64,000 bases of DNA from Bacteroidales bacterium (lineage in GTDB: Bacteria > Bacteroidota > Bacteroidia > Bacteroidales > GCA-2711565): positions 232,242-296,241 of the forward strand of contig OY760934.1 in the NCBI GenBank assembly GCA_963664245.1, read 5' to 3'. Each line of letters opens with the position of its first letter. Positions within the stretch are counted from its first letter, which is position 1. Under the pieces are notes generated by a model, which searched no databases, was not told the origin of the DNA, and saw only the letters and a list, made by a program, of their open reading frames with translations. Positions 9,135 to 56,176 of the stretch are shown here, one piece after another. The position numbers and the translations under genes are program-made.

Positions 9135-9298
9135 GGGGTGCAAAAATATTTTGGTCAGCTTTAGCTGAATGTGATCCAACGTTTTATGGTATGGTGTCGT
9201 GGGGGATTATGGGGCGAAAACGTATCCGTTTACACTGACTTTTTTTTACGAGCCACAAACGCTTAAAAACCGCTGAAACCCGCATGCACTATACCATT
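9135..9298. repeat. Conserved 3' cassette-flank element, copy A (split by the IS; continues at 10999-11010)
   Basis: Shares ordered blocks with 21164-21324. These include GTCAGCTTTAGCTGAATGTGATCCAACG (9154-9181), which is 27/28 identical to 21175-21202. Confidence 0.6.
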
Positions 9299-10998
9299 TG
9301 TGTCTGTTGCACAAAGGCATTAAAATAAATAAATTGCAATTTGGTTAATACTTTTTTTCATCCCTAATAATTCAGGTTTTGATTACTTTATGCATTTAAT
9401 TTCAATAAAAAAGGCTTGAATAGCATTATATGAAGCGAAAAAACCAGCAATTTGCTCATATATATAGGCCATTTGAGCCTTTACCTTGGTCTCGTACTTA
9501 TTGACATTATATTTTAGTAATTTCTTCAAGTTATAAGCACAGGCAGCCATGTGAACCACTTTATTGGCTTGGGCAATACCCAAAGTATTGATTTTTCGTA
9601 ATCCCAGGTATTGAGTAAGGTTTCCCCAAGCTGGTTCTACTGTTGATTGCCGTTTACCCTTCATTTTTCTGCCCCATTTACTATTTACCCTCTCATTATT
9701 CCGTATGTATTCATCCAAATAGGCTGTTATTGCGATCTTTTTTTCATGAGACTTTCCGATACATACACTTCTGCTGGGGCAATCTTTACAATCGCTTCGC
9801 CGGGTATAGTAATGGTTTTGTAAAGAGTCATTGCTATGCTTTTGCTTTTTAAATATTACCCTTTTGCCTTGTGGGCATAACCAATAGTTTTGTTCCTTTA
9901 TAAAAGTAAAACCCTCTGGGCCACCTTTAAACGTTCCATGTTTTGGAATGTAACTAAGTATATGTTCTTGTTCCAGAAACTGATAATTATCTCCGCTACT
10001 ATAACCAGCATCAGCTAGAATATTAGTCCATAACAGCCCTAATCTCCATAAACGCTTATGGGTTCTCTTAACGATATCTTGTAAGTTCTTGCTGTCCACT
10101 CTATCGGCATGATAAGCCTGTACATCACTTATTACATTGAAGGCCGTATCTACGGTAATGTTCCCGTGATAGTTTAGCTTACGGGATTTTCCCGGCTTTA
10201 CACTAATGCGAGCATCAGGATCGGTAGGACTATAATGGGTTTTGTTACTGGTGTATTTAGAACGCTTAGAATTAGCCCCTTGCCGCGTGTTTTGGGTTGT
10301 TTTCCATTTTTTCTGCCGTGCTGCTATTTCATTAAGTTCATCTTTATTTGCAGAAACCTGTCTTTGTGCCAGGTTTGCTTTATTCTTTTTTGCTTTTCGT
10401 ATTGGTTGTTGGTCTCCATTGGAGATAGCCCTTATTCTGGTTAAATATTCTTCCAGCTCTTCTTCTGGTACTTTTAGCTCTAAGCTATCCATACTTGCAT
10501 TGGCTTTAATAGGAGCAGAATCGGTTGCTTGGGTATGCCCACTCACAAGCCCACTATCAACACATAAAGCAAATATCTTTGTAAAAACAGTTTCAAAGAC
10601 ACCCTCTGGAAATAACTGGCGAGTACGGCTAACAGTACTATGCCACGGTAAGGGTTCATCTATATTATATCCAAGAAAATACAAAATATCTAAACGCATG
10701 GAGCAATGTGCTATCAACTTACGATCACTTACAATATTTTCTAAATAGCCAACAATGCATAATTTAAAAAAGACACGCGGGTCTATACTTTTTTGTCCAC
10801 AACCACCATAATATGGCGCAGTTTGTTTGAGGAGAAAATCCAAATTCAGGATCGACTTTAACCTACGGTAAAAGTTCTGCTCTGGCACAACCTGGCTTAG
10901 TTGGAAACTGACAAATAGTTTTTCTTGGTATTCTTTATTCCCTTGCATGACGTAAGTTAATAATATTTTGCCTATTTCTTTGTTGTGCAACAGTTACA
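9299..10998 (-). mobile_element. IS1182-like insertion sequence (~1.7 kb)
   Basis: Terminal inverted repeats TGTGTCTGTTGCACAA (9299-9314) and TTGTGCAACAGTTACA (10983-10998), with an 11-nt perfect core CTGTTGCACAA. Single transposase ORF. TGTGT occurs at 9299-9303 and 10999-11003, which is either a 5-bp target duplication or part of the IR. Confidence 0.75.
9383..10948 (-). CDS. IS1182/IS5-type DDE transposase
   Basis: N-terminal MQGNKEYQEKLFVSFQLSQVVPEQNFYRRLK ... DPRVFFKLCIVGYLENI, typical of IS1182-group transposases. DDE region around ADAGYSSGDNY. The ATG at 10948 is preferred over the TTG at 10990 in the ORF track. Confidence 0.85.
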   Translation of the reverse strand: MQGNKEYQEKLFVSFQLSQVVPEQNFYRRLKSILNLDFLLKQTAPYYGGCGQKSIDPRVFFKLCIVGYLENIVSDRKLIAHCSMRLDILYFLGYNIDEPLPWHSTVSRTRQLFPEGVFETVFTKIFALCVDSGLVSGHTQATDSAPIKANASMDSLELKVPEEELEEYLTRIRAISNGDQQPIRKAKKNKANLAQRQVSANKDELNEIAARQKKWKTTQNTRQGANSKRSKYTSNKTHYSPTDPDARISVKPGKSRKLNYHGNITVDTAFNVISDVQAYHADRVDSKNLQDIVKRTHKRLWRLGLLWTNILADAGYSSGDNYQFLEQEHILSYIPKHGTFKGGPEGFTFIKEQNYWLCPQGKRVIFKKQKHSNDSLQNHYYTRRSDCKDCPSRSVCIGKSHEKKIAITAYLDEYIRNNERVNSKWGRKMKGKRQSTVEPAWGNLTQYLGLRKINTLGIAQANKVVHMAACAYNLKKLLKYNVNKYETKVKAQMAYIYEQIAGFFASYNAIQAFFIEIKCIK

Positions 10999-21163: not shown

Positions 21164-21324
21164 GGGGGCAAAAAGTCAGCTTTAGCTGAATGTGATTCAA
21201 CGGATGGCGGTATGAAATCGTTGGGGATTGCGTGCGATTTACTATCAAGGTACATGGAAAGTTGAAGCGGGCTAAAAACCTTCGCATACCATGAAACCCT
21301 TATTGGCTATATTGTGTGTTGGCA
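21164..21324. repeat. Conserved 3' cassette-flank element, copy B (intact)
   Basis: Blocks GGGGGCAAAAA, GTCAGCTTTAGCTGAATGTGATTCAACG (21175-21202), GGTATG, TCGTTGGGGATT, GCTAAAAACC, CGCATACCAT and TGTGTTGGC occur in the same order as in copy A. Confidence 0.6.
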
Positions 21325-21332
21325 TTAGTACT
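21301..21332. repeat. Cassette-2 inverted repeat, 3' arm
   Basis: TATTGGCT-N9-GTTGGCATTAGTACT, ending 3 nt before the stop codon (21336-21338). Confidence 0.6.
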
Positions 21333-21335
21333 TTT

Positions 21336-22160
21336 TTAATCAAATCTATATAAAAACGTCCGATAAACTTCCCCTTTATGGTTTAAAGTCACTTCTTTAA
21401 TCAATCTACCCAGTGAGTCATAATCGTACATTATTGTATTGTTTTTAACACTAAAAGATAAGTTTTCAGTCAAAGGGTATTCGTTACTTTCAATTGATTC
21501 TTTGATTAATCGTCCATTCTCGTTATAAACAAATTTTTTCTCCTCTTTTAGTTTACCACGAATCCGAGTAATGTTTTTTAATTTTCCTGTATCATCATAG
21601 GAGTATTTTCCAATCCAGGTAGTGTCGCCGTTTTCAATATCAAATTCTTTGTTAATCAGTTCGTCATTATATAAATAAGCTCTCCAAATCTCATACTTGT
21701 CACCTTGCATATTTGAACCTCTATCAATTAATTCTTTGAATATCTTACCGCTCTCATTATAGAATTTAATCTGTTCAAATTTAACTGTATCCAAATCGAC
21801 TGCTGTTACTAAAGTCCTGTATATTCCAATCAGGTTTTTATTGTCATTATAAATCATTAAATCTCTCCACCCAATCTCACAATTATACATACGACAGTTA
21901 TACTTTTCAATTAAATTACCTACCGAATCATAGAAATATTTTATCCTGTATTCATGACCAATCTGTTCGATAAGTTGTCCCGATATATTAAAGAATTTAT
22001 AATTAATAGCATTTTCAGGAGTCATGTTGCTACCAGAATACTTTATTTCTCTTATATCGTAATCTATTTGTTCACTAAAATCTGGAACATACAGAACTTG
22101 TCTCGAACAACTAAATTGTATCAGAATCAAGATTGCTAATATTCTTTGCAGTGTGCTCAT
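21336..22160 (-). CDS. Lipoprotein with short YD/RHS-like repeats
   Basis: Signal MSTLQRILAILILIQFSCS from the ATG at 22160; the track start at 22190 is a TTG. Repeats YDSVGNLIEKY, YDDTGKLKNI, YNENGRLIKES, YDSLGRLIKEV. AT-rich. Confidence 0.55.
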   Translation of the reverse strand: MSTLQRILAILILIQFSCSRQVLYVPDFSEQIDYDIREIKYSGSNMTPENAINYKFFNISGQLIEQIGHEYRIKYFYDSVGNLIEKYNCRMYNCEIGWRDLMIYNDNKNLIGIYRTLVTAVDLDTVKFEQIKFYNESGKIFKELIDRGSNMQGDKYEIWRAYLYNDELINKEFDIENGDTTWIGKYSYDDTGKLKNITRIRGKLKEEKKFVYNENGRLIKESIESNEYPLTENLSFSVKNNTIMYDYDSLGRLIKEVTLNHKGEVYRTFLYRFD

Positions 22161-22192
22161 AGTATTAATACCAACGTATGTACAAACCAATA
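22161..22192. repeat. Cassette-2 inverted repeat, 5' arm
   Basis: The rc reads TATTGGTT-N9-GTTGGTATTAATACT and directly abuts the ATG. The inner 15-mer is 13/15 identical and the outer 8-mer 7/8 identical to the 3' arm. Confidence 0.6.
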
Positions 22193-22310
22193 TGTGTTAT
22201 TTTTCTTATGTCTTTTCAATATCATTATTTATTCCGCAGCTTTGTACGAGAACAAGTCTTAATGCCGGGGGAGAAGCATTATTTCAAATATAAAAAATAA
22301 ACCATTATGA
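22171..22310 (-). promoter_or_regulatory. Promoter + 5' leader module L2
   Basis: On the minus strand there is a -7 box TATATTTG (22285-22292). The hairpin is AATGC-TTCTCCCCCG-GCATT (22261-22280). The proximal 50 nt are homologous to L1. Confidence 0.55.
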
Positions 22311-22332
22311 ATTTAATATCCATAGTTGGTTT
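22299..22332 (-). terminator. Candidate intrinsic terminator of the upstream three-gene operon
   Basis: The minus strand reads AAACCAACTATG-gatattaaatt-CATAATGGTTT followed by ATTTTTT. The stem is 6+4 bp with a small internal loop. The first arm overlaps the stop codon. Confidence 0.45.
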
Positions 22333-23206: not shown

Positions 23207-25228
23207 TTATAATACTTTTATAAGTAAACGAAAATTCTTGACTTCCTGCACCAAGTTGTTCAGTTCTTTTAATTGTACATATTCCTCTTTATCAATGAAG
23301 TCTTTTGTAATTATATAACTTGATTGTATTACAAGTTCATCGTTTGATGAACCTAAGCTTATCTGAAAAAAATATTCTCCTACATCGTTTTTAATACTCC
23401 TGTTAAAATCTTCAAGATTTAACACCTTAATATCACGTGGGAATTTCAGGTTAAATGTACTTACATCGCTATAGCTATAATCCAAATAATAATTCAAGTC
23501 AATAGAATCTTTTTCGCTTTCAATTTTGCTGTTTCGTATTAATTTATCCAGGGTAATACTAATCATATTATCACTTATAAATGTGACTGAATTTTTGATT
23601 GTGCCTTTTGCATTGAAATTGTATAAAAAAGGAGCTGTGTTTTTAAAAGTAATATTCGTAATGGTGTCAATTTCTAAAGCAGTTTTATCATCTTCAAATT
23701 TGGCAAATGCACTATAATAATCATTCATTTCCTGGTTTTTATCAAGCATACTAAAGAACCTTCTTAAATCCGTTGATAATCCGCCGGAAATCCTTAAGCT
23801 TGAATTAAAAGTGGTGTTTTTGTTTTCAATATCTACATCACAATAGATATACTGATTCAGATAATTTAAATTGGCATTCATCCCCGGCAAGGTGATTAAA
23901 TTAATTTGAACAGAATCTGCTTCTGCCACTTCTAAGTCATAATTAATGTACTTGTCTTTTGCCTTAATTTTACCCTCTAAAAACGGTTGTGCGATAACGG
24001 CTTTTGTATTATAAAGTGATGTTGGGATTTCATTAATCTGATATTTGTAATTTACATCGTGTGGGTACAAAAAGCTAAGAAATCCCTTGCCATTTTCATA
24101 TGCAAAAAATATGTGATCAAATTCCCCTTTTCTGATATAGCCCGGGTCAATCTCTCCCGATCGTTTACTACGGGCAAATACGGCCCAATATTTAATGTTT
24201 AAGTCCTCTAACAATTGACGGTATAAGCGTCGGATACTTATAGGATCAAAACGCTGTTCTTTTAAAAAGTATCCAGTGGATTTTATAAATTCTTCTTCTT
24301 TCGGTTCTTCTATTGCGAAATTTTTAAGAATGTCGTTATGTAGAAGCTCGAATTTGTAATATTTGCTACTGTCTTTTTCGTCATCAATAATTCTTTTTTT
24401 CCAGCGACGGTAGTACGATTTTTTTTCATAGTCTAGTGATAAAGGTTGGGTCATGTAATTAAATTCCTGGTTGTAAACATCTTTCCAGTTTCTAATATCA
24501 TCGTCCTTATTGTTAACCGAATAAAAGATATAGGGTAATTCGCAGGGCAAACAGGTGTAGTTGTTTCCTTCCAAAGCTTTAACCTCTTTCATTTTAAATA
24601 CACAATAAATTAGGGTGTCATTTACCAATACCTGAGGTTTAGGAAATCCATTGTACTCTTTATACATAATGACCAGATTGGGAGGAGTTTGAATGGTGTA
24701 TTCGGTATTTAAACTGGGAATGGCATTGAATAGGTTTACAAAATCCCCTAGTTCATAAAGTTTTAACTTATGGGTATACGTATACTTAATTTCAATCGTA
24801 TCTCCTGCTTCAACCCCGGGAATCGGAAAATTTATCAGATCTGTTTGTTCTTCTTTTTTTTGGCGATTTAAAATAAGGCTTGAATCTAATTTTACGATGC
24901 TTCCGTCTGACTTTAATGTTTTAATAGTTATAGTACTTAAATCATCTATGGTTGATTTACTTAGACTTAGAAATGCAAACTTGTCAACCCCGGATTTATT
25001 ATTAATTACAATTTTATTTTGGAAAGAAACATGTCTTCTGTAATTCCTCCATGATTTACTGTAAGCAACATCTGTATATGAATATAACATGTAAGCATCA
25101 GCGTTTTTACACACTTCGCTAAATGGTTGTTTAGGAATACTGTCATTGGCAAAAACACCGATGCAAATAAAGCTTAGACAAAAGAGAAGGTGCTGTTTAA
25201 ATTTTGTTTTCGAGAATAATGGGCTCAT
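23207..25228 (-). CDS. Large secreted protein of unknown function (possibly a DUF3857/DUF3858-type partner of the adjacent transglutaminase-like protein)
   Basis: Signal peptide ...HLLFCLSFICIGVFA; 673 aa; AT-rich. The family guess comes only from the typical Bacteroidota gene pairing. Confidence 0.45.
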   Translation of the reverse strand: MSPLFSKTKFKQHLLFCLSFICIGVFANDSIPKQPFSEVCKNADAYMLYSYTDVAYSKSWRNYRRHVSFQNKIVINNKSGVDKFAFLSLSKSTIDDLSTITIKTLKSDGSIVKLDSSLILNRQKKEEQTDLINFPIPGVEAGDTIEIKYTYTHKLKLYELGDFVNLFNAIPSLNTEYTIQTPPNLVIMYKEYNGFPKPQVLVNDTLIYCVFKMKEVKALEGNNYTCLPCELPYIFYSVNNKDDDIRNWKDVYNQEFNYMTQPLSLDYEKKSYYRRWKKRIIDDEKDSSKYYKFELLHNDILKNFAIEEPKEEEFIKSTGYFLKEQRFDPISIRRLYRQLLEDLNIKYWAVFARSKRSGEIDPGYIRKGEFDHIFFAYENGKGFLSFLYPHDVNYKYQINEIPTSLYNTKAVIAQPFLEGKIKAKDKYINYDLEVAEADSVQINLITLPGMNANLNYLNQYIYCDVDIENKNTTFNSSLRISGGLSTDLRRFFSMLDKNQEMNDYYSAFAKFEDDKTALEIDTITNITFKNTAPFLYNFNAKGTIKNSVTFISDNMISITLDKLIRNSKIESEKDSIDLNYYLDYSYSDVSTFNLKFPRDIKVLNLEDFNRSIKNDVGEYFFQISLGSSNDELVIQSSYIITKDFIDKEEYVQLKELNNLVQEVKNFRLLIKVL

Positions 25229-27023
25229 TGATTATTTTTTTGTACGATTTCAGTATTTCGTTTATTGTATTAAGGTTTTCTTTTTTAATGAAGATGTAAT
25301 CAAGAATAAACTCGTAGTTACATTCTATTATAGAATCAGCCGGGTTGCTTATCTTCAGGTCAAGGGAAACACCTTTATCTGAGAATGAATGTTCAATCTG
25401 CTTAAATGCGTTAAAAGGTTCCTGCATTTTAATTGTCAGCTTAACTTTTTTATCGATTGTGCTACCCAGGTGTGTTCCTTCAAGCAGGGTTTCCCTGTTT
25501 TCTGTATCTATTAAACGGGGTAAAAAGTCGATGAATAAATATCGGCTATCATTATCTTTAAATATTTTCAGATCGACAGATAGCTTGCCTTCAATATTAA
25601 CCGTGTCAGAATGGCTGTTAACCGTGAGCGCTGTTACCGATTGGTTGTTAAATATCAATTCATAATACTTTTTTCCGATACATTCTCTTTCATCTTCTTT
25701 GCTGCCATAAAACATCCATTTTAAAAAGTTTCCGGAAATGCCAGTGTAAATAGCTTTAAATTTCCCTTGTAACGATTTGCCAGAATCTGTATTTAACTCA
25801 ACTTCGTAGTTGATTATATTGTCTTGAGGTGCAAATCTGTTTAATTTATAATATTCCCCGCCATCGGGATTGAGAATTAGGATTGTTTTTTCCTGAATGC
25901 TTTGAACAGGGGTTCCCGGTATATGAATCGGATCCGTTGGATCCAGCACAATAGGTTTGTTATTTAAATATGCCACGCATACAATATGATTAGCCGAACA
26001 TAAGGCCGGGAAATCGCAATCGCAAATATGGTGAAACGTAGCTGCTAGTGCAATATGGCTTTTAATTCCTTTGTAATTTAAGGCTTCGCAAAGGAAATTT
26101 GATAAGTCTTTACAATCACCATGTTTGTTTTTAAAAACTTCATTTACATGCGATGGAATAAATGCGCCTATGCCTATCTCAATGGCGACATATTTAAAAT
26201 TTGTTCTTACATAATTATAAAGGGTGTTTGCGATTTCGGTTGAGTCGGTTATGCCATTTGTTATTTCGTTAATTTTATTTATAGCTAATGAATCTAGGCC
26301 TCTTACAGTCTCTACTTTACGGAGAAACCAGTTGTTTAAATATTCGGTTTTATTTTCACCCGAAGCCGTTGGAATAACCGTTGTTCTTATTAGTGGAGCC
26401 CTTATGTCTCTATAAATGCCAAAGTACATCATAAAGTCAGGTTCTACTTTAACCGGAACTGCTTTAAAACGAAACTGCATTTGATTGTTAAATTTAGAAG
26501 AATCAATAAGCAGATATTTCAAAGAATCTATATATAATGTATTGTAAAAAAAATGGTGTGTTTCAGGTATTGTAATCTGGTAATCTAGGGTGTCAGCATT
26601 ATCATAGTTGAATAGGGGTAAATCACAGAAATATCTTAATTCTTTACATGAAACTCTATAGGTGATTTTTGCTTCAGTTTCAGCAGGAATGATAATGGAC
26701 TTTACTCTTTTACTGGAAATTAATTCAGAGTTGAAATCTTCATTGTGAATAATTGGGTCTTCCAGGATTTTAAACCGCTTTCCTTTTTTAATATATACCT
26801 TAATGCCAGATATTCTTTCTAACTCATAATCATAGAAAATAGGAAAAATACTTTCTTCAGAACTTTGTTTGATGAGTACACTAATATTTCTATTGAATAC
26901 AGTGTCGTTTACTATTTCAATATGTTCAGTTTTTGTACTGATGTTTAAATCCCGGGCTAATCCCGGAATGTGAATTGAAAATAATAAAACTGCCAAGATT
27001 GAATTAATCGTAGAACCTTTCAA
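25197..27023 (-). CDS. Secreted transglutaminase-like (cysteine-protease fold) domain protein
   Basis: The core KHGDCKDLSNFLCEAL carries a catalytic-type Cys. N-terminal signal. The track start is a TTG, so the exact start is uncertain. Confidence 0.6.
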   Translation of the reverse strand: MKGSTINSILAVLLFSIHIPGLARDLNISTKTEHIEIVNDTVFNRNISVLIKQSSEESIFPIFYDYELERISGIKVYIKKGKRFKILEDPIIHNEDFNSELISSKRVKSIIIPAETEAKITYRVSCKELRYFCDLPLFNYDNADTLDYQITIPETHHFFYNTLYIDSLKYLLIDSSKFNNQMQFRFKAVPVKVEPDFMMYFGIYRDIRAPLIRTTVIPTASGENKTEYLNNWFLRKVETVRGLDSLAINKINEITNGITDSTEIANTLYNYVRTNFKYVAIEIGIGAFIPSHVNEVFKNKHGDCKDLSNFLCEALNYKGIKSHIALAATFHHICDCDFPALCSANHIVCVAYLNNKPIVLDPTDPIHIPGTPVQSIQEKTILILNPDGGEYYKLNRFAPQDNIINYEVELNTDSGKSLQGKFKAIYTGISGNFLKWMFYGSKEDERECIGKKYYELIFNNQSVTALTVNSHSDTVNIEGKLSVDLKIFKDNDSRYLFIDFLPRLIDTENRETLLEGTHLGSTIDKKVKLTIKMQEPFNAFKQIEHSFSDKGVSLDLKISNPADSIIECNYEFILDYIFIKKENLNTINEILKSYKKIINEPIILENKI

Positions 27024-27068
27024 ACCTATTAAAAATTAAAACCATTGTTCATAATATAATTATCCCTA

Positions 27069-27110
27069 ATGCCGGGGAGAAGCATCAAGTCAAATATATA
27101 AAATAAATCA
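27069..27110 (-). promoter_or_regulatory. Promoter + leader hairpin module L3
   Basis: On the minus strand there is a -7 box TATATTTG (27091-27098) followed by ATGC-TTCTCCCCG-GCAT (27069-27085). This is the same core as in L1 and L2. Confidence 0.5.
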
Positions 27111-27157
27111 ATGTATAATAGGTTTTAAAAGAGGAATTAGATTCTTTCTGTAAACAA

Positions 27158-27187
27158 AAAAGCTGTCTTCTTTCGAAAACAGCTTTT
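27158..27187 (-). terminator. Intrinsic terminator behind the displaced rho fragment
   Basis: AAAAGCTGT ... ACAGCTTTT forms a 9-bp stem. On the minus strand it is followed by a T-run. Confidence 0.6.
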
Positions 27188-27210
27188 ATATCTAAAGAAT
27201 AATTTTGTGT

Positions 27211-27595
27211 CTATCCATTCATCGAAATCAAAAATTCCTCGTTAGTTTGAGTGAACATGATCTTGTCTTTCAGGAACTCCATGGCTTCCAGCGGGTTCAT
27301 GTCGGCCAGATGGTTTCGTAGTACCCAAATGCGTTGCAGCGATTCTTTATCAAGCAGCAAATCTTCGCGGCGTGTACTTGATGCCACCAAATCGATAGCC
27401 GGGTAAACGCGTTTGTTCGATAATTTGCGATCCAACTGAAGCTCCATGTTGCCGGTACCTTTAAATTCTTCGAAGATTACTTCATCCATTTTAGAGCCGG
27501 TGTCGATCAGGACCGTAGCGATGATGGTTAATGAACCACCGTTTTCAATTTTACGGGCTGCACCAAAGAAACGTTTTGGTTTTTGAAGGGCGTTG
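27211..27595 (-). pseudogene. rho: Truncated duplicate of the rho 3' end (last ~128 codons)
   Basis: Co-linear with 29230-29614 at a constant offset of 2,019 nt. The 92-aa ORF differs from Rho at one residue. It has no 5' part. Confidence 0.85.
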
Positions 27596-27842
27596 CTAAA
27601 AAGTATTGGGAATCAAGATTTAATGCTTGTAACATCTGATAAGAACGGAAGATACATACAATAATTATGACAAAAGAATAACTAATGTTGGCTAAATAGA
27701 CGAAACGAGAGTAAATTAAAGTAGAATATTCTGTTTCAAATTTCTACAATTTAATAACTTTGAAGCCAGCAACCGCCTACTTTACATATGTTTTGGGATG
27801 GCCGTTTTGCAGCGAAGTATTAATAAATTAAAATATGATGTT

Positions 27843-29141
27843 ATGAAAAAGAAACCGTTTTTTGTAATTCTTTTTATGCTTCCATTTGTGTTATTTGCCC
27901 AGAAACAAGGCGATGTTGGAATAGCTTTCAGTGAGGGGAATAATAACTGGGGAAAGGGGTATTTTTTTATCACCTGGGTTGATCCTAATATTAATGAGAA
28001 TTATATTGGGAATAATTATTTGAAATATGCAGATATAATTACCCATGTTGATGGGGTAGATGTGCATAATATTGCTAGGGAGAAGTTTATGGATTTTTGT
28101 AAAGGAGATGTTGGATCAAAGGTAGAGTTTACGGTGAACCGTATGGGATGTCCAGAACCCATTAAAATAGCGATAAAAAGAAAAGCTTCTTTAAATGCCC
28201 TTTGGGGCCCCTATTATTTTTCAACAAAAATAAATTATAATTTAGGGAGTAGTGTCAGGCACAGTTGGATTATGAGACAGACTAATGATGCTGAAAGTTC
28301 CCACCAAATACTAAGCGACAAGGAAATCGATTTTCTTGCATATAAAACTTTTGATTTTGAATACACTAACCAAAAACAACCATTAATTGAAAAAGAATTA
28401 TCTTCGGTTATTGAAAATATATTAGAATCTAAAGGATTGGCGAGAGATAAAGAGAACCCTGATTTCTTGGTTTTTATTGATTTCTTTTCTGATAAAAAAG
28501 AACAATATGTTCCGCCAACAGAGAAACTCTATACCCGATATAATACAACATATAATATTTGGACCAAAAGCTGGGAAACAAGAAAAAATATCCAGTCCAG
28601 AACAGAAGGAGATTATACAAGAACTGAATACCTGACTGTGCTAAAAATAGCTTTCATGGATGCAAATCGAACAAAGCTTGCTGACAATAAGGTTCCCCCC
28701 GTTATATGGGAAGCTACTTATGAAAGAACTGAAAATGAAAAAACAACAATCCTTAATAAAGCAAAAGAGGAATATCCTTTATTGCTGAAATCTTATCCTG
28801 TTATAGCATGGCAATTTGATTTAGCTTATAATGATTGGGGAATATATGTAGACCGTGTGAATCCTAATAAGATAGCAAAAATAATTCCCGGCAGCTATGC
28901 CGAAAAAATTGGCTTACAGGAAAATGATATTATTGTGATGGTAAGAAAAGTAGATCGAGCAGCTTCATATCGTGAATACAAAGAATCCCCGATGTTTTAT
29001 TTATTTGAATATGACAAACAGCTTTGGTCTGTTTATAAGATTAGGGTTAATAGAGATGGGAAAAATAAAACGTTGTCTATTTCGTATAAAGATCCCCAAC
29101 CTTCGGTAGAGAGGTTGAAGATAAGCCTTCCTCAAGAATAA
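27843..29141 (+). CDS. Secreted PDZ-domain protein
   Basis: Signal MKKKPFFVILFMLPFVLFAQ from the ATG at 27843. PDZ-like segments ADIITHVDGVDV...GSKVEFTVNR and IIPGSYAEKIGLQENDIIVMV. Confidence 0.6.
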   Translation: MKKKPFFVILFMLPFVLFAQKQGDVGIAFSEGNNNWGKGYFFITWVDPNINENYIGNNYLKYADIITHVDGVDVHNIAREKFMDFCKGDVGSKVEFTVNRMGCPEPIKIAIKRKASLNALWGPYYFSTKINYNLGSSVRHSWIMRQTNDAESSHQILSDKEIDFLAYKTFDFEYTNQKQPLIEKELSSVIENILESKGLARDKENPDFLVFIDFFSDKKEQYVPPTEKLYTRYNTTYNIWTKSWETRKNIQSRTEGDYTRTEYLTVLKIAFMDANRTKLADNKVPPVIWEATYERTENEKTTILNKAKEEYPLLLKSYPVIAWQFDLAYNDWGIYVDRVNPNKIAKIIPGSYAEKIGLQENDIIVMVRKVDRAASYREYKESPMFYLFEYDKQLWSVYKIRVNRDGKNKTLSISYKDPQPSVERLKISLPQE

Positions 29142-29174
29142 TGAATGATTTTTGATAGTTTTAAAATATATATT

Positions 29175-29208
29175 AAAAAGGCTGGAACCTACGGGTAACA
29201 GCCTTTTT
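29175..29208. terminator. Bidirectional terminator between the PDZ gene and rho
   Basis: AAAAAGGCTG ... CAGCCTTTTT forms a 10-bp stem flanked by an A-run and a T-run. Confidence 0.6.
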
Positions 29209-29229
29209 TAATATATTAATTTTTAATGG

Positions 29230-30801
29230 TTATCCATTCATCGAGATTAAAAATTCCTCGTTGGTTTGAGTGAACCTGATTTTGTCTTTCAGGAATTCCA
29301 TGGCTTCCAGCGGGTTCATGTCGGCCAAGTGGTTCCGCAGTACCCAAATACGTTGCAGCGATTCTTTATCAAGCAGCAAATCTTCGCGGCGTGTACTTGA
29401 TGCCACCAAATCGATAGCCGGGTAAACACGTTTGTTCGATAATTTGCGATCCAACTGAAGCTCCATATTGCCTGTACCTTTAAATTCTTCGAAGATTACT
29501 TCATCCATTTTAGAACCGGTGTCGATCAGGGCAGTAGCGATAATGGTCAATGAACCGCCGTTTTCGATTTTACGGGCTGCGCCAAAGAAACGTTTTGGTT
29601 TTTGAAGGGCATTGGCTTCCACCCCACCGGATAATACTTTGCCCGATGCCGGAGAAACAGTGTTGTAAGCCCTTGCCAAACGGGTGATAGAGTCGAGCAG
29701 GATAACTACGTCGTGGCCGCACTCGGTCATGCGTTTTGCTTTTTCCAGCACAATGTTTGCAATTTTTACGTGGCGTTCTGCCGGTTCATCAAAAGTAGAT
29801 GAAATGACTTCGGCTTTTACGCTACGTTCCATGTCTGTTACCTCTTCCGGGCGTTCATCAATTAACAAAATAATTAAATAGGCTTCGGGATGGTTGGCAG
29901 CAATGGCGTTGGCAACTTCTTTTAAAAGAACCGTTTTACCGGTTTTTGGTTGAGCCACAATCAACCCACGTTGTCCTTTTCCAATAGGCGTAAACAAGTC
30001 GATTACACGGGTTGAAATGGTTTCTTGTGGATGTCCGGTTAACGAAAGTTTTTCGTCCGGGAACAGGGGCGTTAAGAAATCGAAAGGAATACGGTCGCGT
30101 ACTTCTTCCGGCCTGCGCCCGTTGATTAACTCAACTTTAATTAACGGAAAATATTTTTCGGTTTCTTTTGGTGGACGAATGGTCCCTCTCACGGTATCAC
30201 CGGTTTTTAATCCGAATAATTTAATTTGTGATTGAGAAACGTAAATGTCGTCGGGAGAGTTCAGGTAATTGTAATCTGATGAACGAAGGAAACCATAGCC
30301 ATCCTGCATGATTTCAAGAACGCCCTCGCTAGACACAATGCCTTCTAGCTCTGAAAGAAAATCATCGCGTTTAACTTCGTATTCTGATTTCGGGTTGTCC
30401 TGTTTTGGAGTCTCTTTTTTCTCAGGAATTTCAATATTTTCGTTACGTTCTATCCTGCTTTTTTTAGGTTTGACTTCTTGCTCAGTATCAGGATTGGTTG
30501 AAAAAACAGGTTCGTCAATAGAAGGTTCTTCTGGTTCTTTCTTTTTGATCGGTTCCACTTTTTCGGGCTCACGCGGAATACGTGCACGCCTTCCCCGGCT
30601 TGGTTTTTTAATTTCTTTTTTCCCTTTTTCTTTTTCTTCTTTTTCTAGCTCTTCATTGGTAGGATTTAACGCCTGATGATCTAAAATTTTGTAGATAAGA
30701 TCTTGCTTTAATAATTTATCAACTTTAGGAATGTTAAGGCTTTTAGCTATCTCACGCAGTTCCGAAACCAATTTGCCATTAAGTTCAATAATGTCGTACA
30801 T
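29230..30801 (-). CDS. rho: Transcription termination factor Rho (with K/E/P-rich N-terminal insertion)
   Basis: N-terminus [25 protein letters not shown], Walker [13 protein letters not shown], conserved C-terminal ATPase region. 523 aa. Confidence 0.95.
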
Positions 30802-30918
30802 GAAAATTTTATTTAATTTTTAAATAAGGAGTTTTAATTATATGATAAATTTTTTTACGTGCTTTATGTTATAAAAAATTTAAGTAGAAAATAGTTTATG
30901 GAAATACTTATTCTTTTG

Positions 30919-30926
30919 CAAATATA
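30919..30926 (-). promoter_or_regulatory. Candidate -7 box upstream of rho
   Basis: The minus strand reads TATATTTG, about 118 nt upstream of the rho ATG. Confidence 0.3.
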
Positions 30927-31034
30927 ATAAAAGAATAATATAAATCTTAAAAAAATAGGAAAAAAAGTACTTCAACTTTCAAATTTGTAGTTCTTTATAA
31001 CGAAAATTTAAAGAAAATTTGTGTTCAGTTTTCT

Positions 31035-31042
31035 TATATTTG
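31035..31042 (+). promoter_or_regulatory. Candidate -7 box for the DUF4293-like gene
   Basis: TATATTTG lies 18 nt upstream of the ATG at 31060. Confidence 0.45.
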
Positions 31043-31059
31043 CATTAAAATTTTTAGTT

Positions 31060-31530
31060 ATGATTCAGCGTATACAAAGTGTTTACTTATTTGTTGCAAG
31101 CCTGGCTTTAGGCCTGATGTTTGTTTTCCCGATTAGCCGGTTTTATGGTGATTTACATACTTTAGAACTTTCTTTATTGGAATTAAAAAACCTGGTGCCA
31201 ACCAGCGCGGATATTGTTAATCCCTATTTTACCTATCCTTTGGCTATTTCAGTAATTATTATTTCGGCAGTTGCTTTTATAAGCATCTTCTTTTATAAAA
31301 AAAGGAGAAGACAAATACGTTTGATACAGATTGATATTTTCCTAAATATCCTCTTGATTTTTGGTGTTTTCTTTGTTTATACCAGGCTGATTCAAAACCA
31401 AGTGAGCGTTGATGAAGTTTACGATATTGCTTCTTATCTTCCGCTGATATCGCTGGTGGCGTTAATTCTGGCTTATCGTGGTGTAAAGAAAGACGAAATG
31501 CTGGTTCGTTCGGCTGACCGATTGCGTTAG
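31060..31530 (+). CDS. Small integral membrane protein, DUF4293-like
   Basis: Four hydrophobic helices. N-terminus MIQRIQSVYLFVASLAL. Divergent from rho, as is often seen in Bacteroidota (recollection). The ATG at 31060 is preferred over the GTG at 31021. Confidence 0.5.
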   Translation: MIQRIQSVYLFVASLALGLMFVFPISRFYGDLHTLELSLLELKNLVPTSADIVNPYFTYPLAISVIIISAVAFISIFFYKKRRRQIRLIQIDIFLNILLIFGVFFVYTRLIQNQVSVDEVYDIASYLPLISLVALILAYRGVKKDEMLVRSADRLR

Positions 31531-32021
31531 GCTCTTTTTACTTCAAATATTTCTAAATCCTTTATTTGATTTCCGTCTATTTGAAAACGCATCATGGTAA
31601 TGTGTTTGTGAAAGCCCGATTTTCCGGCTGAGCCCGGATTCATGTGCAATAATTTTAAATCCGTATCATTTATCACTTTTAAAATGTGAGAATGCCCCGA
31701 AATGAATAATTGGGGCTGGTGTTCTGTTAATAAATTTTTAATCCCCTTGGCATAGTGTTTTGGATAGCCCCCAATGTGGGTCATAAAAACCGTTACTTCT
31801 TCGCATCTAAATATTTGGAATTCTTTAGTTTCTAAGCGGATTTTCTGATTATCGATATTTCCGTAAACGGCAATAAGCGGCTTGAATTTTTTTAGTTTAT
31901 CAAGGGTTTCAATATCCCCAATATCTCCGGCATGCCATATCTGATCTACGTCTTTGAAAAAATCAAAAAGTCGGGGGTGAATATACCCGTGCGTATCGGA
32001 GATTAAACCAATTTTTTTCAT
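31527..32021 (-). CDS. Metallophosphoesterase (YfcE/MJ0936-like)
   Basis: Motifs ISDTHG, HAGDIGD, YGNIDN, SGHSH. Confidence 0.8.
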   Translation of the reverse strand: MKKIGLISDTHGYIHPRLFDFFKDVDQIWHAGDIGDIETLDKLKKFKPLIAVYGNIDNQKIRLETKEFQIFRCEEVTVFMTHIGGYPKHYAKGIKNLLTEHQPQLFISGHSHILKVINDTDLKLLHMNPGSAGKSGFHKHITMMRFQIDGNQIKDLEIFEVKRA

Positions 32022-32896
32022 TAAAATTTAATTGTGAACCCTAGACCGAACAGCTCTTTAAACTGGGTTCGCGGCCCAATTTTCCCTTCATCATCTTTAA
32101 TGTTAATATCATCATCATAAATAAGATGGGTGGATAAAGTAGAGGCCATAAAGCTGTTGATTTTCATGTTGAAAAACAGTTCCCAGTCGACATCAACATT
32201 TTCAGGGTGACTTTTATAATTCGAGAACACCTCCAGCTTTGTTTTCATTTCTACATTTTTAATGATTTCTTTTTTGAAATTCATGACAATAGAACCACCA
32301 TGAGCAAATTTAGAATGTTTTCCGGGATTAACTCCAAATGCCCCCTCGTCTGCTAACTTTTTATCAGCAACAATAATTAAACGACCGGTGAACGGTGAAA
32401 TATTGAGTGAGAAATTTTTGCTGGGTTTGTGTTCAATACCAAAAGATAAATAAATGTATGCCGGGGCAAAAAAACTGGAAATAGCAACCGAATCGTTCGG
32501 GTAATTGTACCCGTTGGTGAATTGGGTTTTAAGCGTAGTCATTATGGTATAGTACCAGTTTTTAATCGACCTTTTCCCGTAAGTGCTTGAGAAATAAATT
32601 TTGTCATCAATTTTACGAAAAGGCTCTCCATTTTGCTTTTGCAAGCCATAAGCCAGTTCAAATTTGTTGTCCCAAATACTATTGTTTTTTTTATAATTTG
32701 CCTGGAAATTAAAAAAAGTGTTGGTCGAGATGGAGCTTTCTCCACCCTTTGCCCAGTTTGAAAGCGTTACCTGCGATATTACAAATTTTGTTTCTGCTCC
32801 AACGTTCCAGGCCGAGTCTTTTTTTTGTTCTTGAGAAAATGTGGGTACAGTAAATAATAAAACTAAAGCTAAACTATAAATCTTCTTCTTCATCAA
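32021..32896 (-). CDS. Outer-membrane beta-barrel-like protein, DUF3078-like
   Basis: Signal peptide, the segment SNWAKGGESS, and alternating beta-strand pattern ending in F. Confidence 0.6.
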   Translation of the reverse strand: MMKKKIYSLALVLLFTVPTFSQEQKKDSAWNVGAETKFVISQVTLSNWAKGGESSISTNTFFNFQANYKKNNSIWDNKFELAYGLQKQNGEPFRKIDDKIYFSSTYGKRSIKNWYYTIMTTLKTQFTNGYNYPNDSVAISSFFAPAYIYLSFGIEHKPSKNFSLNISPFTGRLIIVADKKLADEGAFGVNPGKHSKFAHGGSIVMNFKKEIIKNVEMKTKLEVFSNYKSHPENVDVDWELFFNMKINSFMASTLSTHLIYDDDINIKDDEGKIGPRTQFKELFGLGFTIKF

Positions 32897-32902
32897 TAAA
32901 TC

Positions 32903-33721
32903 TTACTTTTCATTATACACGTGAACATCTCTTTGCGGAAATGGAATAGAAATCCCTTCCTTGTCAAAGGTTTTCTTTACTGTTTCTGTAATTTCGAAAT
33001 ATACTTTCCAATAATCGGGTGTTTTGACCCAGGCTCTTACTACAAAATTTACCGAGCTGTCTCCCAGTTCTGACAACGCAATAAATGTTTCGGGTTCATT
33101 TAATATTAATTCGTGTTTTTCGGTAATTTCCTTTAAAATGCGTTTTGCTTTATCAATATCATCGCCATAGCCAATCCCGAATTTGAAATCTACTCTTCGG
33201 AGCTCTTCGGCAGAATAATTTACCATGGAACCGGTTGATAAGCCACCATTAGGAATAATAATGGTTTTGTTGTCGGGGGTTTTAAGGATGGTGTTAAAAA
33301 TCTGGATTTCTTTAACTGTTCCGGCATAGCCCTGCGCTTCGATATAATCGCCTACCTTAAATGGTTTGAAAAGAAGGATTAATGCTCCTCCTGAAAAATT
33401 CTGCAACGTTCCGGAAAGTGATAATCCAATGGCTAGTCCGGCAGCACCTAAAATGGCTACAAAAGAAGTCATTTCAACGCCAACCATGGCCATCACGCTT
33501 ACAATAAGCAAAATTTTTAAAGTGATGCTGATAAAACTTACGATATAAGGTGTAAGTGTTACGTCAACTTTTCGTTTGTCTAATAATTTCGATAAGCCTT
33601 TTCTGATGGCTTTGATGACCCAGAATCCAATGATTAATGTAAATATTGCTAACAAAAGTTGTGGGCCATATTCAAATAGCATATCAATCGCTTTTCCCGA
33701 ATATCTGTTTAATTCTTCCAT
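32903..33721 (-). CDS. Mechanosensitive ion channel (MscS family)
   Basis: Three N-terminal TM helices followed by FKPFKVGDYIEAQGYAGTVKEIQIFNT, the MscS beta-domain. Confidence 0.85.
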   Translation of the reverse strand: MEELNRYSGKAIDMLFEYGPQLLLAIFTLIIGFWVIKAIRKGLSKLLDKRKVDVTLTPYIVSFISITLKILLIVSVMAMVGVEMTSFVAILGAAGLAIGLSLSGTLQNFSGGALILLFKPFKVGDYIEAQGYAGTVKEIQIFNTILKTPDNKTIIIPNGGLSTGSMVNYSAEELRRVDFKFGIGYGDDIDKAKRILKEITEKHELILNEPETFIALSELGDSSVNFVVRAWVKTPDYWKVYFEITETVKKTFDKEGISIPFPQRDVHVYNEK

Positions 33722-54982: not shown

Positions 54983-56176
54983 TTAATTTTCTATTTTCTG
55001 AATCACATCATAAATGGCTTTTACGTTATTTTCCCAGGTATGTTCCCGTGCAAATTGTATTCTTTTTTCTTCCAGTTCTGGGGTATTCTCGTTTAATGCT
55101 TTTTCGATGTTTAAAACATATTCTTCTTTGCTGGAAGCCAGGTAAACATGGTCCTTAAAAACCTGCATGGTTTCGGTTGAAGTTGCTACCGTGGACTTGC
55201 CCATGGCCAGGTATTCGTCAATTTTCCGCGGGTAGTTTCCAATGGTCAGCGGGTTTAAATCCTGCGGGTTCAGGGCTACATCAAAGGCTTTTAAGTAGGA
55301 GGGGAGTTGCTCCATTGGTTTTGAACCTAAAAAATACACGTTTTTAATTTGGTGGAGATTACTGTTTTGAAATTTTTCATCCTCGGGACCAACCAAAACA
55401 ACACTCCATTCGGGTTTGCTTGTCGCGATGTGTCCGATCACTTCGATATCCAGCCTTGAACTCTTTAAAGCCCCAATATAGCCAATAACAGGCTGCTTTA
55501 TTGGTTCTATATCGCTGGGGAGTTCTTTAATCAAATCGTTATTAAACAAAGAAACATCGCAGCCCTGGCCAACATAAAACGAATTAGGATTCATGTTACG
55601 GGCAATGTTTTGCAGGTAAACCGAATTGGCAACCACCAAATCTGATTTTTTCATGACTGCATCCTCGTAAAAAATACCATGGTGCTTGAAAAAATCAGTA
55701 GCCCGCATATTATCGCGGGTGTAATAAACCAGCGTTTTAGGTTTTAAAATCTCTTTAAACAGAAAAGCCCGGTAAAAATCGCTGTCGTTAAAAATGATAA
55801 AATCCTTGAAGCCAAGTTCATCAATGGCCTTCTGAACCTGTTTGGCATAGCGTTTTGAATTTATATTGTTGAAGGAATTAAAAAGCCTGCGGTGCCCGAT
55901 TTTGCTGATCGATTCAAGAATGGTTTTGGGGTTCAGGTTCCATAAATTATCATTGATTTGCTCAATAGCCGGAAGTTGGTTCTTTAATATTTTTTTCCGC
56001 TTGTTAACCAGGGGATCATTTTTTTTACGAAGCAAGGTAAGCCGATCCATGGGGTAATTTACATACAGCACCCGGTTGTGTTTGGCGAATTCATAAGCAA
56101 TATTCACACAATTGCTGCCAATTGTCGAATCGAGGCTTTGCAGGCCATGAACGATAATGTCCCTGTTTTTAATCAT
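54983..56176 (-). CDS. Glycosyltransferase (GT-B, GT4-like), paralog 1
   Basis: Clearly homologous along its whole length to 56169-57398 (MIKNRDIIVHGLQ vs MVENRDIIAFGLQ; IDEYLAMGK in both). The ATG at 56176 was chosen by alignment to the paralog. Confidence 0.75.
   Translation of the reverse strand: MIKNRDIIVHGLQSLDSTIGSNCVNIAYEFAKHNRVLYVNYPMDRLTLLRKKNDPLVNKRKKILKNQLPAIEQINDNLWNLNPKTILESISKIGHRRLFNSFNNINSKRYAKQVQKAIDELGFKDFIIFNDSDFYRAFLFKEILKPKTLVYYTRDNMRATDFFKHHGIFYEDAVMKKSDLVVANSVYLQNIARNMNPNSFYVGQGCDVSLFNNDLIKELPSDIEPIKQPVIGYIGALKSSRLDIEVIGHIATSKPEWSVVLVGPEDEKFQNSNLHQIKNVYFLGSKPMEQLPSYLKAFDVALNPQDLNPLTIGNYPRKIDEYLAMGKSTVATSTETMQVFKDHVYLASSKEEYVLNIEKALNENTPELEEKRIQFAREHTWENNVKAIYDVIQKIEN

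Follow-up and report, generated by a model that had tools for sequence, protein, structure and literature searches.

In Escherichia coli, the element e14, and likewise phage 21, supplies a replacement 3' end to icd, and the native end is displaced as icdC (Hill et al. 1989). The 15-kb e14 element encodes its own integrase and has defined att sites, and its SOS-induced excision has been demonstrated. C-terminal displacement scars at Rhs, CdiA, and T6SS loci need no integrase: an incoming 3' end arrives together with cargo, and the old end is kept as a downstream orphan (PMC5361080, citing Jackson et al. 2009). An established proposal for such scars is homology-facilitated illegitimate recombination (HFIR) (PMC5361080). 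The loci concerned encode polymorphic toxins and are marked by different toxin 3' ends, selected orphan immunity genes, and orphan arrays. Concerted evolution between a gene and its pseudogene covers events since the joining of two repeats, not the origin of the repeats themselves.

The rho locus in the 64,000-nt stretch of Bacteroidales DNA analysed here (the window) resembles each of these systems in part. As at icd, a duplicated gene 3' end flanks an insert and the upstream copy (copy A) completes the gene, so that a central, essential gene would have been kept working by an incoming 3' end. The displaced 3' end (copy B) measures 385 bp at rho and 163-165 bp at icd (e14). In both cases the paired ends differ mainly by silent or conservative changes, and recombination between them would give a functional chimera. 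Unlike e14, however, the rho locus holds a single 1.6-kb cargo gene and no element-encoded site-specific recombinase (Pfam on ORFs of at least 100 aa over ~3-33 kb, and genes to 39 kb); no such element was found at rho in 98 other loci, and reuse of an element or att site in other genomes was not found among 102 rho loci. The Rhs, CdiA, and T6SS scars share with rho a conserved upstream gene part that can serve as homology anchor, and the rho locus likewise combines a conserved 5' part, a new 3' end with cargo, a retained old 3' fragment, and no recombinase. In contrast to the toxin loci, both rho ends encode one and the same housekeeping sequence, the cargo gene specifies a secreted PDZ protein with no relation to it, and only a single fragment is present; toxic C-termini, immunity genes, and orphan arrays are absent from the rho locus. 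The rho scar works like the HFIR family but is no member of the toxin systems. As in gene/pseudogene concerted evolution, the two repeats lie 2 kb apart, share polymorphism in their interior, and are deeply diverged at one border only, and the strain differences are confined to the repeat and match paralogous alleles.

Layout of the duplicated rho end

Intact rho contains the Pfam domains Rho_N, Rho_RNA_bind, and ATP-synt_ab, and its last 128 codons are repeated downstream in the open but headless frame of copy B (Table 1). This fragment has no start codon at its 5' edge, its first ATG lying at 27489; in other strains, gene calling reports it as an ORF of 78 aa. ORF and Pfam lists and hairpin folding bear out the original prediction that only a PDZ-protein gene and a bidirectional terminator lie between the copies. 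That hairpin (29175-29209) is common to rho and the convergent PDZ gene, with a dG of -21.3 on the minus strand and -23.0 on the plus strand, and fragment B retains, as predicted, a terminator of its own (27158-27187; dG -24.4 kcal/mol, z -6.7). The 432-aa PDZ protein has a signal-like sequence at its N-terminus. Upstream of its gene, a TAACTTTG box at 27755-27762 fits the Bacteroidota -7 consensus.

Table 1 Positions of the features of the rho locus in the window
Feature	Position	Strand	Evidence or remark
Intact rho, 523 aa	29230..30801	minus	ORF and Pfam; identical to database protein P0138
Copy A, the 128 final codons of live rho (residues 396-523) with its TAA stop	29230..29614	minus	repeat alignment
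Copy B, displaced rho 3' fragment, open frame, TAG stop	27211..27595	minus	repeat alignment, ORF
Zone 2 of copy B, repeat positions 319-385	27211..27277	minus	holds six fixed A/B differences
3' untranslated region of copy B with terminator hairpin 27158-27187	27156..27210	minus	in-register alignment, folding
3' untranslated region of live rho with bidirectional hairpin terminator 29175-29209	29175..29229	.	alignment, folding
Non-repeated insert between the copies	27596..29174	+	247 nt upstream region and PDZ/DUF4136/PDZ_6 gene
PDZ/DUF4136/PDZ_6 gene, 432 aa	27843-29141	+	Pfam; identical 432-aa protein is P0001
Abrupt junction, end of rho homology; putative illegitimate or crossover joint	27595..27596	.	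55/60 matches up to 27595, then background
Transglutaminase-like (TGase) gene, co-oriented with and directly downstream of fragment B	25197..27023	minus	ORF, Pfam

The TGase gene is the first of a block (TGase-DUF3857-291 aa-RHS-like) with a GC content of 30-34%, and the GC content of the PDZ gene is equally low. The block carries a shared promoter/leader element of its own in two positions, suggesting that it behaves as one unit, and its left edge differs between strains. Tyrosine or serine recombinases near the repeat unit are missing from the gene lists for ~9 to 39 kb. Pfam searches of all ORFs of at least 100 aa over ~3 to 33 kb, together with precomputed Pfam assignments to 39 kb, returned a DDE transposase (9383-10990, 16 kb from the unit) as the sole mobile-element match, in agreement with the earlier statement that no integrase is present. 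There are no tRNA genes anywhere in the window, and neither terminal inverted repeats nor att-like or other long repeats were found around the insert. The one match to a known RNA family at the locus is sub-threshold and terminator-like.

Positions 27211-27595 and 29230-29614 align without gaps over all 385 nt at a constant offset of 2019 nt and with no indels, exactly as first described. The copies differ at 24 of the 385 nt (93.8% identity). In a codon-aligned Nei-Gojobori comparison, 21 of these differences are synonymous, two are nonsynonymous, and one exchanges stop codons (TAG vs TAA), giving a dS of 0.306, a dN of 0.0068, and a dN/dS of 0.022; the predicted synonymous bias is strong (Fisher p 2.6e-13). 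The single residue difference reported earlier (M vs R) holds for residue 508, but the full 128 codons add a second change, A423V. Ala423 is invariant in 12/12 in-frame outgroup rho sequences.

The two borders of the homology are unlike. At the upstream border (27595/29614) it breaks off abruptly, as predicted, and from 27596 and 29615 onward matches fall to 13-26 per 60 nt. The other border had been placed exactly at the stop codon, but weak in-register similarity runs ~55 nt beyond it (31/55 identical, 56%), with a significance of 5e-5 in a mononucleotide shuffle and p=0.02 for the gapped local score. The terminator hairpins of the two copies lie at the same offset, and the similarity could stem partly from a common A-tract/stem/T-tract architecture rather than from common descent.

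Fixed and exchanged differences among strains

The same layout occurs in four further strains of the species (L081, L082, L087, and L088; ~98.2% identical to the window), each from a separate metagenome assembly. Because these independent long-read assemblies share it, the repeat arrangement is not an artefact of assembly as far as sequence data show, which settles a doubt raised with the original prediction. The five assemblies come from different samples and agree in order, spacing (2019 nt), and junctions; one of them is a circular contig of 3.78 Mb, and the duplication is fixed in the species. A chimera assembled from the reads of two co-occurring strains, or a collapsed strain mixture, would suit metagenome data and a divergence between the copies similar to that between strain alleles, but its probability is negligible given the concordant assemblies, the copy-specific fixed sites, and the different terminator beside each copy. 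It is also at odds with the sorting of the A alleles into three groups while B and the insert remain linked.

Copy A is present as three alleles among the five strains, with 10-18 differing sites, all synonymous. In the four further strains, the 127 residues encoded by copy B are identical to those of copy A, although the two differ at 13-19 silent sites; A423V and R508M are both peculiar to the window strain. Differences fixed between all A and all B number six and are confined to the last 67 nt of the repeat (positions 319-385, zone 2). All six are silent transitions, with the derived state mostly on B as polarised by outgroups that are near saturation at silent sites, and such a set has P ~0.005 for transitions in a neutral pseudogene. 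The repeat falls into two zones: silent-site divergence between the copies is ~0.42 in the last 67 nt, close to the ~0.44 of the terminator regions, and 0.11-0.22 in the interior. Both terminators are invariant among strains.

These results uphold two earlier claims, that the pair did not arise by a recent local duplication followed by neutral decay (the B protein is identical in four strains, the fixed differences are silent, and the terminators are only 56% identical) and that both copies evolved as functional rho ends, which the silent-only divergence in four strains and the low probability under neutral decay support. With its fixed divergence at the edge and its converted interior, the strain comparison argues that copy B descends from a separately evolving functional rho end.

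The original prediction had treated all substitutions as divergence that preceded the joining. Most of the 24 are not a clean record of that period, since the interior 318 nt appear converted. The first 318 nt of the repeat form a reticulate mosaic in which polymorphism is shared with rho alleles. Between-strain differences in B amount to 14/385, all at repeat positions 49-339, while the flanks of B have 4-9 in 2580 nt (0.15-0.35%) and the insert between the copies has 3-8 over 1580 nt. The density in B is 10-24 times higher than in the flanks (Fisher p 6e-10 and 8e-8), indicating ectopic gene conversion from the live rho gene. Consistent with this, positions 188-287 of the window's B equal the rho allele of L081, and the B of the other strains differs from the same allele at two sites over positions 5-264. 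Ancestral states lost elsewhere survive in each version of B: 49T and 67A in that of the window, and 275T and 283T in that of the other strains. Three A and two B alleles together indicate that the repeat interior was overwritten by ectopic gene conversion; judged from these few alleles, conversion may have run from A to B, from B to A, or both ways.

Strains L081 and L087 differ at 43 sites between 29269 and 30946 and at none between 30947 and 33000. This pair directly shows rho alleles replaced by homologous recombination in near-identical backgrounds, so recombination anchored in rho and involving diverged donors does take place at this locus. The idea that rho is a uniquely hypervariable gene was rejected, because other strain pairs show comparable patches elsewhere, and the island in L081/L087 represents ordinary mosaic recombination. 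There is almost no variation over the first 33 nt of the repeat. Since the low variation at repeat positions 1-48 also occurs in other genera, it reflects conservation rather than an att core.

Relatives, possible donors, and the joining of the two ends

A second rho copy occurs only in this species among the 102 rho loci examined: none of the 98 others with a rho 3' end has a second end, and the remaining four are from the same species. A tblastn search of 108 loci with the rho C-terminus likewise found no second fragment outside the species. Exact-protein look-ups and a search of 5.8 billion proteins gave no empty site, donor, or intermediate, the nearest other rho being an 82% identical protein, and a codon-aware DNA pattern scan and a TGase-protein scan of metagenomes returned no closer lineage and no TGase relatives. 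A lineage in which the TGase block follows rho was not encountered, and the PDZ gene is next to rho in no relative examined. Comparison with relatives had been expected to identify the foreign copy and to reveal an empty site or larger elements at the rho 3' end. The relatives show neither of the latter, and both copies have 78-80% identity to the outgroups (L105, L107, L108, and others), so that a foreign copy is indistinguishable by this route.

Among the nearest genera, the rho 3' end is a synteny breakpoint with a conserved upstream side; downstream, a gene for a Mur ligase or an M14 peptidase follows, and the window contains neither. The breakpoint lends a little weight to the suggestion that the rho 3' end is a hotspot of accretion, while the single displaced fragment, with no array, speaks against it. 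We also considered whether the PDZ gene travels with a rho fragment, but five homologue contexts (49-64% identity) have no neighbours in common with the window and contain no piece of rho. A role of rho as an att site for phages or other elements was rejected as well. Among the 14 loci obtained when viral contigs were scanned for the rho C-terminal half, two contigs (L092 and L093) carry a tyrosine integrase and phage genes within 260 nt after rho, with a tRNA-Arg(TCT) gene between rho and the integrase that is the likely prophage target; the window, in contrast, has no tRNA. A third locus (L104) has a tRNA-like 3' fragment beside rho, recognised by eye and not called by ARAGORN. A 52-aa member of the rho protein cluster (P0139) proved to be an unrelated sequence.

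On balance, fragment B is probably a dead, displaced rho end, the scar of one old additive recombination event. DNA of a related but distinct lineage would have joined the chromosome with rho as the stretch of homology, leaving two rho 3' ends and terminators of different ancestry around the 1.6-kb PDZ/DUF4136 gene. End A would be fused to the rho body, keeping the essential gene intact, and end B would be a promoterless fragment. How the ends were joined, and which of them came from outside, we infer from this arrangement. The most likely route is HFIR of linear DNA, with a homologous crossover within rho at one end and illegitimate joining at 27595/27596 at the other; copy A would have come in with its terminator and the PDZ gene, and the resident end B would have been displaced downstream. 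Later, the 94-96% identical direct repeats would have exchanged sequence by ectopic gene conversion that overwrote different interior parts of B in each strain. The last 67 nt and the terminators, beside the homology border, would have stayed unconverted and kept the original deep divergence, and B may now be in slow decay, as the two amino-acid changes in the window strain suggest.

The original prediction instead envisaged a circular element with a rho 3' end, a terminator, and the PDZ gene that recombined into the rho 3' end by a site-specific or Campbell-type event. We consider this unlikely, as we do the variants in which the 2,019-nt unit is the whole circle or what remained once deletion had removed an integrase and further genes. 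The resulting arrangement matches icd/e14/icdC exactly, with the gene end replaced, the native end displaced as a pseudogene, and mostly silent differences; one homology border is abrupt, the nearly invariant first 33 nt could hold a core site, and a 2,019-nt circle would be set free if the repeats recombined. Additive import and a Campbell-type or site-specific event lead to identical final structures, and rho-anchored import with one homologous and one illegitimate end accounts for the locus no less well than the insertion of a 2-kb circle. Nothing speaks positively for a 2-kb circle or a decayed element with a foreign rho end: no integrase or recombinase lies in or near the unit, the DDE transposase being 16 kb off, and the 98 other rho-bearing loci have no second end. 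The prophages beside rho in viral contigs sit at tRNA-Arg(TCT), loci with PDZ homologues contain no rho fragment, the invariance of positions 1-48 is cross-genus conservation, and a deletion that left one cargo gene and spared both junctions is ad hoc.

Additive import of A also has a mirror image, in which the PDZ gene was resident beside rho and B is the frayed margin of a low-GC island (B, TGase, DUF3857, the 291-aa gene, and the RHS-like gene) acquired from a lineage in which that block follows rho. The homology anchor would then lie further left, with the illegitimate join again at 27595/27596. B is continuous and co-oriented with the low-GC TGase block, which is unit-like in its twofold promoter/leader element and strain-variable at its left edge, and B sits on the longer, derived branch at fixed sites. 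Still, the PDZ gene is equally low in GC and stands beside rho in no relative, no lineage with the required gene order was found, and the mirror image is symmetric with import of A on all available sequence evidence; we regard it as quite improbable. An in-situ origin has less to recommend it yet: a 440-nt piece (rho end and terminator) would have been copied when the PDZ gene inserted, A would later have been replaced by diverged alleles, and B would be a frozen old allele, occasionally converted. The strains directly show that rho alleles have been replaced, and such a history would explain silent-only differences with no foreign gene end on the insert, as well as the shared polymorphism at interior positions. 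Against it, a 440-nt target duplication is unusual, a donor with rho-terminator-PDZ is needed from which zone 2 and the terminator (44% diverged) were swapped while PDZ was spared, and more steps are required than if there had been one additive event. Zone 2 and the terminators do not vary among the present strains, so no replacement is visible at the border today. This course of events is very unlikely.

Bearing on other genomes

The rho scar is a known kind of genomic scar at an unusual gene, with no new mechanism or element class. It offers a clean natural example of how a conserved essential gene can serve as homology anchor for foreign DNA, undamaged and with a scar left behind. The five strains also give a view of the fate of such a scar, in which the interior is repeatedly converted from the live gene and the border edge keeps the original divergence. 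PDZ/DUF4136 homologues elsewhere are in unrelated contexts. There is a slim chance that the 2,019-nt unit exemplifies an integrase-free route of gene addition, in which cargo on a copy of an essential-gene end is inserted by host recombination anchored there and is lost or passed on by recombination between the repeats, with B as a silent donor or acceptor for live rho. If this were general, conserved essential-gene ends would be recurrent accretion points that need no mobile-element machinery.

For practical purposes, the 78-aa hypothetical gene in public assemblies is a rho pseudogene, and short-read assembly or read mapping will break or mis-call variants at rho in this species.

Two copies of the rho 3' end

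The 3' end of rho is present twice in the window (table). Copy A, the end of an intact minus-strand gene for a 523-aa protein with Rho_N, Rho_RNA_bind, and ATPase domains, and copy B, an open but headless fragment comprising residues 396-523, are collinear and gap-free, 2019 nt apart throughout, and mismatch at 24 of 385 nt; past 27595/29614 the identity drops at once to background, as the original prediction had described. Codon-aligned Nei-Gojobori counts give 21 synonymous and 2 nonsynonymous differences besides TAG vs TAA at the stop (dS 0.306, dN 0.0068, dN/dS 0.022; Fisher p 2.6e-13), which bears out the almost purely synonymous divergence proposed earlier; the M/R difference at residue 508 had been recognized correctly, but A423V is an additional one. 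The homology had been thought to be limited exactly by the stop codon. However, similarity goes on beyond it, with 31 of 55 nt identical in register and a strong terminator hairpin at equal distance from each stop.

The sole gene between the copies, on the plus strand, encodes a 432-aa PDZ/DUF4136/PDZ_6 protein and has a bidirectional terminator in common with rho. PDZ/DUF4136 homologs (49-64% identical) lie in neighbourhoods unrelated to that of the window, and no piece of rho was found at these loci.

Four more loci of the same species, from separate metagenome assemblies (L081, L082, L087, and L088), were reached through an identical PDZ protein and rho proteins of nearly the same sequence. 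Over 17 kb they share ~98.2% identity with the window and agree with it in order, spacing, and junctions; the L087 locus is on a circular 3.78-Mb contig, and the rho of the window is recorded as protein P0138 on a 3.73-Mb contig. Since these five concordant assemblies have different rho alleles, a chimeric assembly join, an artefact against which the original prediction had cautioned, is ruled out.

Coordinates of features (window positions unless a locus is named)
Feature	Position	Remark
Copy A	29230-29614	3' end of intact rho
Copy B	27211-27595	displaced fragment
Bidirectional terminator hairpin	29175-29209	between copy A and the PDZ gene
rho and leader	29230-30946	divergence patch, L081 vs L087
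N-terminal insertion region of rho	around 30391-30485	clustered amino-acid changes
Low-divergence block	23400-29174	compared among strains
~50-nt element	27054-27103; 22245-22295	minus-strand sense
Non-aligning stretch	21230-22331; L081 3559-4423; L087 18658-19402	strain-variable
55-nt direct repeat	9154-9208; 21175-21229	82% identical, 12 kb apart
IS-type DDE transposase gene	9383-10990	adjoins one 55-nt repeat copy
Direct-repeat pair	55182-55414; 56392-56624	70-71% identical, ~1.2 kb spacing
Direct-repeat pair	59188-59357; 60381-60550	70-71% identical, ~1.2 kb spacing
tRNA-Arg(TCT)	L092 2266-2341; L093 2110-2185	viral contigs

Ancestry and probable conversion of the displaced end

Three alleles of A and two of B are represented among the ten copies in five strains. 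Substitutions that separate every A from every B are restricted to repeat positions 319, 334, 352, 367, 370, and 385 (counted in the rho sense, 385 being the stop-codon end), all within the last 67 nt and all silent third-position transitions, stop codon included; upstream of this zone the whole repeat is reticulate. Pairs of A alleles are separated by 10-18 differences, every one of them synonymous. Copy B is identical in four strains, where its encoded residues are exactly those of A, and differs from the B of the window at 14 sites, all within positions 49-339. Both amino-acid changes (A423V and R508M) occur in the window's B only, A423V at an alanine that is invariant across every in-frame outgroup rho, and they therefore look like pseudogene decay in that strain.

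Between-strain differences are 10- to 24-fold enriched in B relative to its flanks (Fisher p 6e-10 and 8e-8), the 1.58-kb insert together with the left 1-kb flank having only 4-9 differing sites, and both terminators are invariant among the strains compared. Positions 188-287 of the window's B are identical to the L081 rho allele, from which the B of the other strains differs at only two sites over positions 5-264. Ancestral states lost in every other copy are retained at 49T and 67A in the window's B and at 275T and 283T in that of the others. The simplest reading of these sequence patterns is that the original B was diverged over its full length, and that its interior was later overwritten by ectopic conversion from the live gene, in parts that differ between lineages, with the stretch beside the homology border escaping. 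Conversion is not required for the near-identity of positions 1-48, since other genera also conserve this stretch unusually well. At silent sites, the raw divergence of B from A is 0.11-0.22 for positions 1-318 and ~0.42 for 319-382, the latter matched by the adjoining terminator regions, which differ by 44%. The conversion history of this scar is nicely resolved, and its behaviour after the joining is an ordinary case of concerted evolution between a gene and a linked pseudogene fragment.

The original prediction took the divergence as a record of two functional rho ends that evolved in different lineages before being joined. Of the 24 differences in the window, many are live-rho population polymorphism or conversion products and not a clean record of that time, but the synonymous bias still means two lineages, and functional ends of different ancestry are supported by the unconverted zone and the diverged terminator regions. 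The unconverted zone has six silent and zero replacement changes, with the derived state mostly held by B, and the probability of six such changes as neutral transitions in a pseudogene is about 0.005. The adjacent non-coding region exceeds by far the divergence of any between-strain comparison. Together, these observations show that B was part of a functional rho for most of its separate history, and on the same grounds a local duplication that simply decayed is rejected. Duplication in situ, with the live copy and its terminator later exchanged for another allele, is a more elaborate and less likely alternative; it requires additional steps as well as a donor in which the PDZ gene was already next to rho.

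Joining of the ends

Linear DNA of a diverged relative could have entered and been resolved at one end by homologous recombination inside rho and at the other by an illegitimate join at 27595/27596. Such an import would give exactly the observed structure without a circle or an integrase. This route corresponds to homology-facilitated illegitimate recombination, a model put forward to explain gene ends displaced at T6SS and Rhs loci (PMC5361080). In L081 vs L087, one rho allele has visibly been replaced by another through homologous recombination on an otherwise identical background, with 43 differences in 29269-30946 and zero in 30947-33000; this belongs to a wider mosaic of recombination in the population. 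Insertion of a 2-kb circle by the Campbell route, as originally predicted, is possible and would give the same final product, but the features searched provide no supporting evidence for an integrative element. Neither the unit nor the genes around it encode a tyrosine or serine recombinase (the closest mobile gene, for a DDE transposase, lies at a distance of 16 kb); the window contains no tRNA gene, and the junctions lack terminal inverted repeats and other long repeats. Among 102 fetched rho-3'-end loci, including 80 Bacteroidota reference genomes, a second rho 3' copy is present only at the same-species loci. The recombinase-free route is at least as likely as an integrative element. A mirror-image import, in which B and the adjoining low-GC transglutaminase-like (TGase) block were incoming and the PDZ gene resident, would also give the same final product. 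The outgroups, at 78-80% identity to either copy, do not discriminate between A and B as the foreign one, and neither the protein database nor the metagenome collection yielded a closer lineage.

In the nearest genera, the genes upstream of rho are syntenic with the window (L19-SpoU-RmuC-MscS-DUF3078-Metallophos-DUF4293-rho), whereas those downstream are different in each and none is present in the window; the rho 3' end is therefore a synteny breakpoint. The breakpoint is compatible with the suggested accretion hotspot, but there is one displaced fragment and no accretion series. In E. coli, icd/icdC has the same architecture around e14: incoming DNA provides the 3' end of the gene and the native 163-bp end is the far-side pseudogene. 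However, e14 has an integrase and excises, and the rho unit shows neither and thus falls outside this class on the tested feature. It works like Rhs/T6SS C-terminal displacement but is not a polymorphic toxin locus. This is another case of a known scar type, in an unusual place, an essential housekeeping gene.

When viral contigs were scanned for rho, two from IMG/VR (L092 and L093) proved to have a prophage next to it. In both, a Bacteroidota prophage with an Arm-DNA-bind_5/SAM_5/Phage_integrase integrase and a tail-fibre chaperone gene starts at tRNA-Arg(TCT), ~90 nt downstream of a 671-aa rho. Rho itself was rejected as a prophage target; these prophages start 260 nt after it, but the intervening tRNA gene is the likely target.

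Strain variation around rho

Between L081 and L087, rho and its leader form a sharp divergence patch, and the 3.7-kb TGase/DUF3857 block has one difference. Comparable patches are seen elsewhere in other strain pairs, and the pattern thus looks like the usual mosaic recombination and not rho-specific hypervariability. Across the low-divergence block, the window (compared with L081, L082, L087, and L088) differs from L081 and L087 by 0.2-0.5% over the PDZ insert, B flanks, and TGase/DUF3857 genes vs ~1.8% locus-wide. L081 and L087 differ there by only 0.03-0.3%, and L087 and L088 by 1.7% in the TGase/DUF3857 block. The pattern is a hint that the block recently spread or swept through some of the population.

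The sole neighbourhood stretch that does not align between strains encodes a 284-aa RHS-repeat-like protein in the window and two small ORFs (165 aa and 128 or 88 aa) with no Pfam match in the others. One copy of the 55-nt direct repeat lies exactly at the border of this region, and the repeat may delimit a segment that is mobile or was rearranged. The ~50-nt element (TTTATTTT-TATATTTGA...ATGCTTCT(C)CCCCGGCATTA) lies upstream of the transglutaminase-like operon and the RHS-like gene; its 19-20-nt core occurs at only these two places in the window (chance expectation 0). It contains a Bacteroidota-type -7 box (TATATTTG) with a conserved leader after it, and is possibly a shared promoter or regulatory leader.

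The 90%-identity rho cluster (P0017) includes a 52-aa member (P0139) with a sequence unrelated to rho, on a Logan contig of 2,022 bp, a length close to the 2,019-nt repeat period. This contig may be a short-read unitig bounded by the 77-nt block common to both copies. The two direct-repeat pairs between 55 and 61 kb, inside runs of like-sized minus-strand ORFs, are probably tandem paralogous genes.
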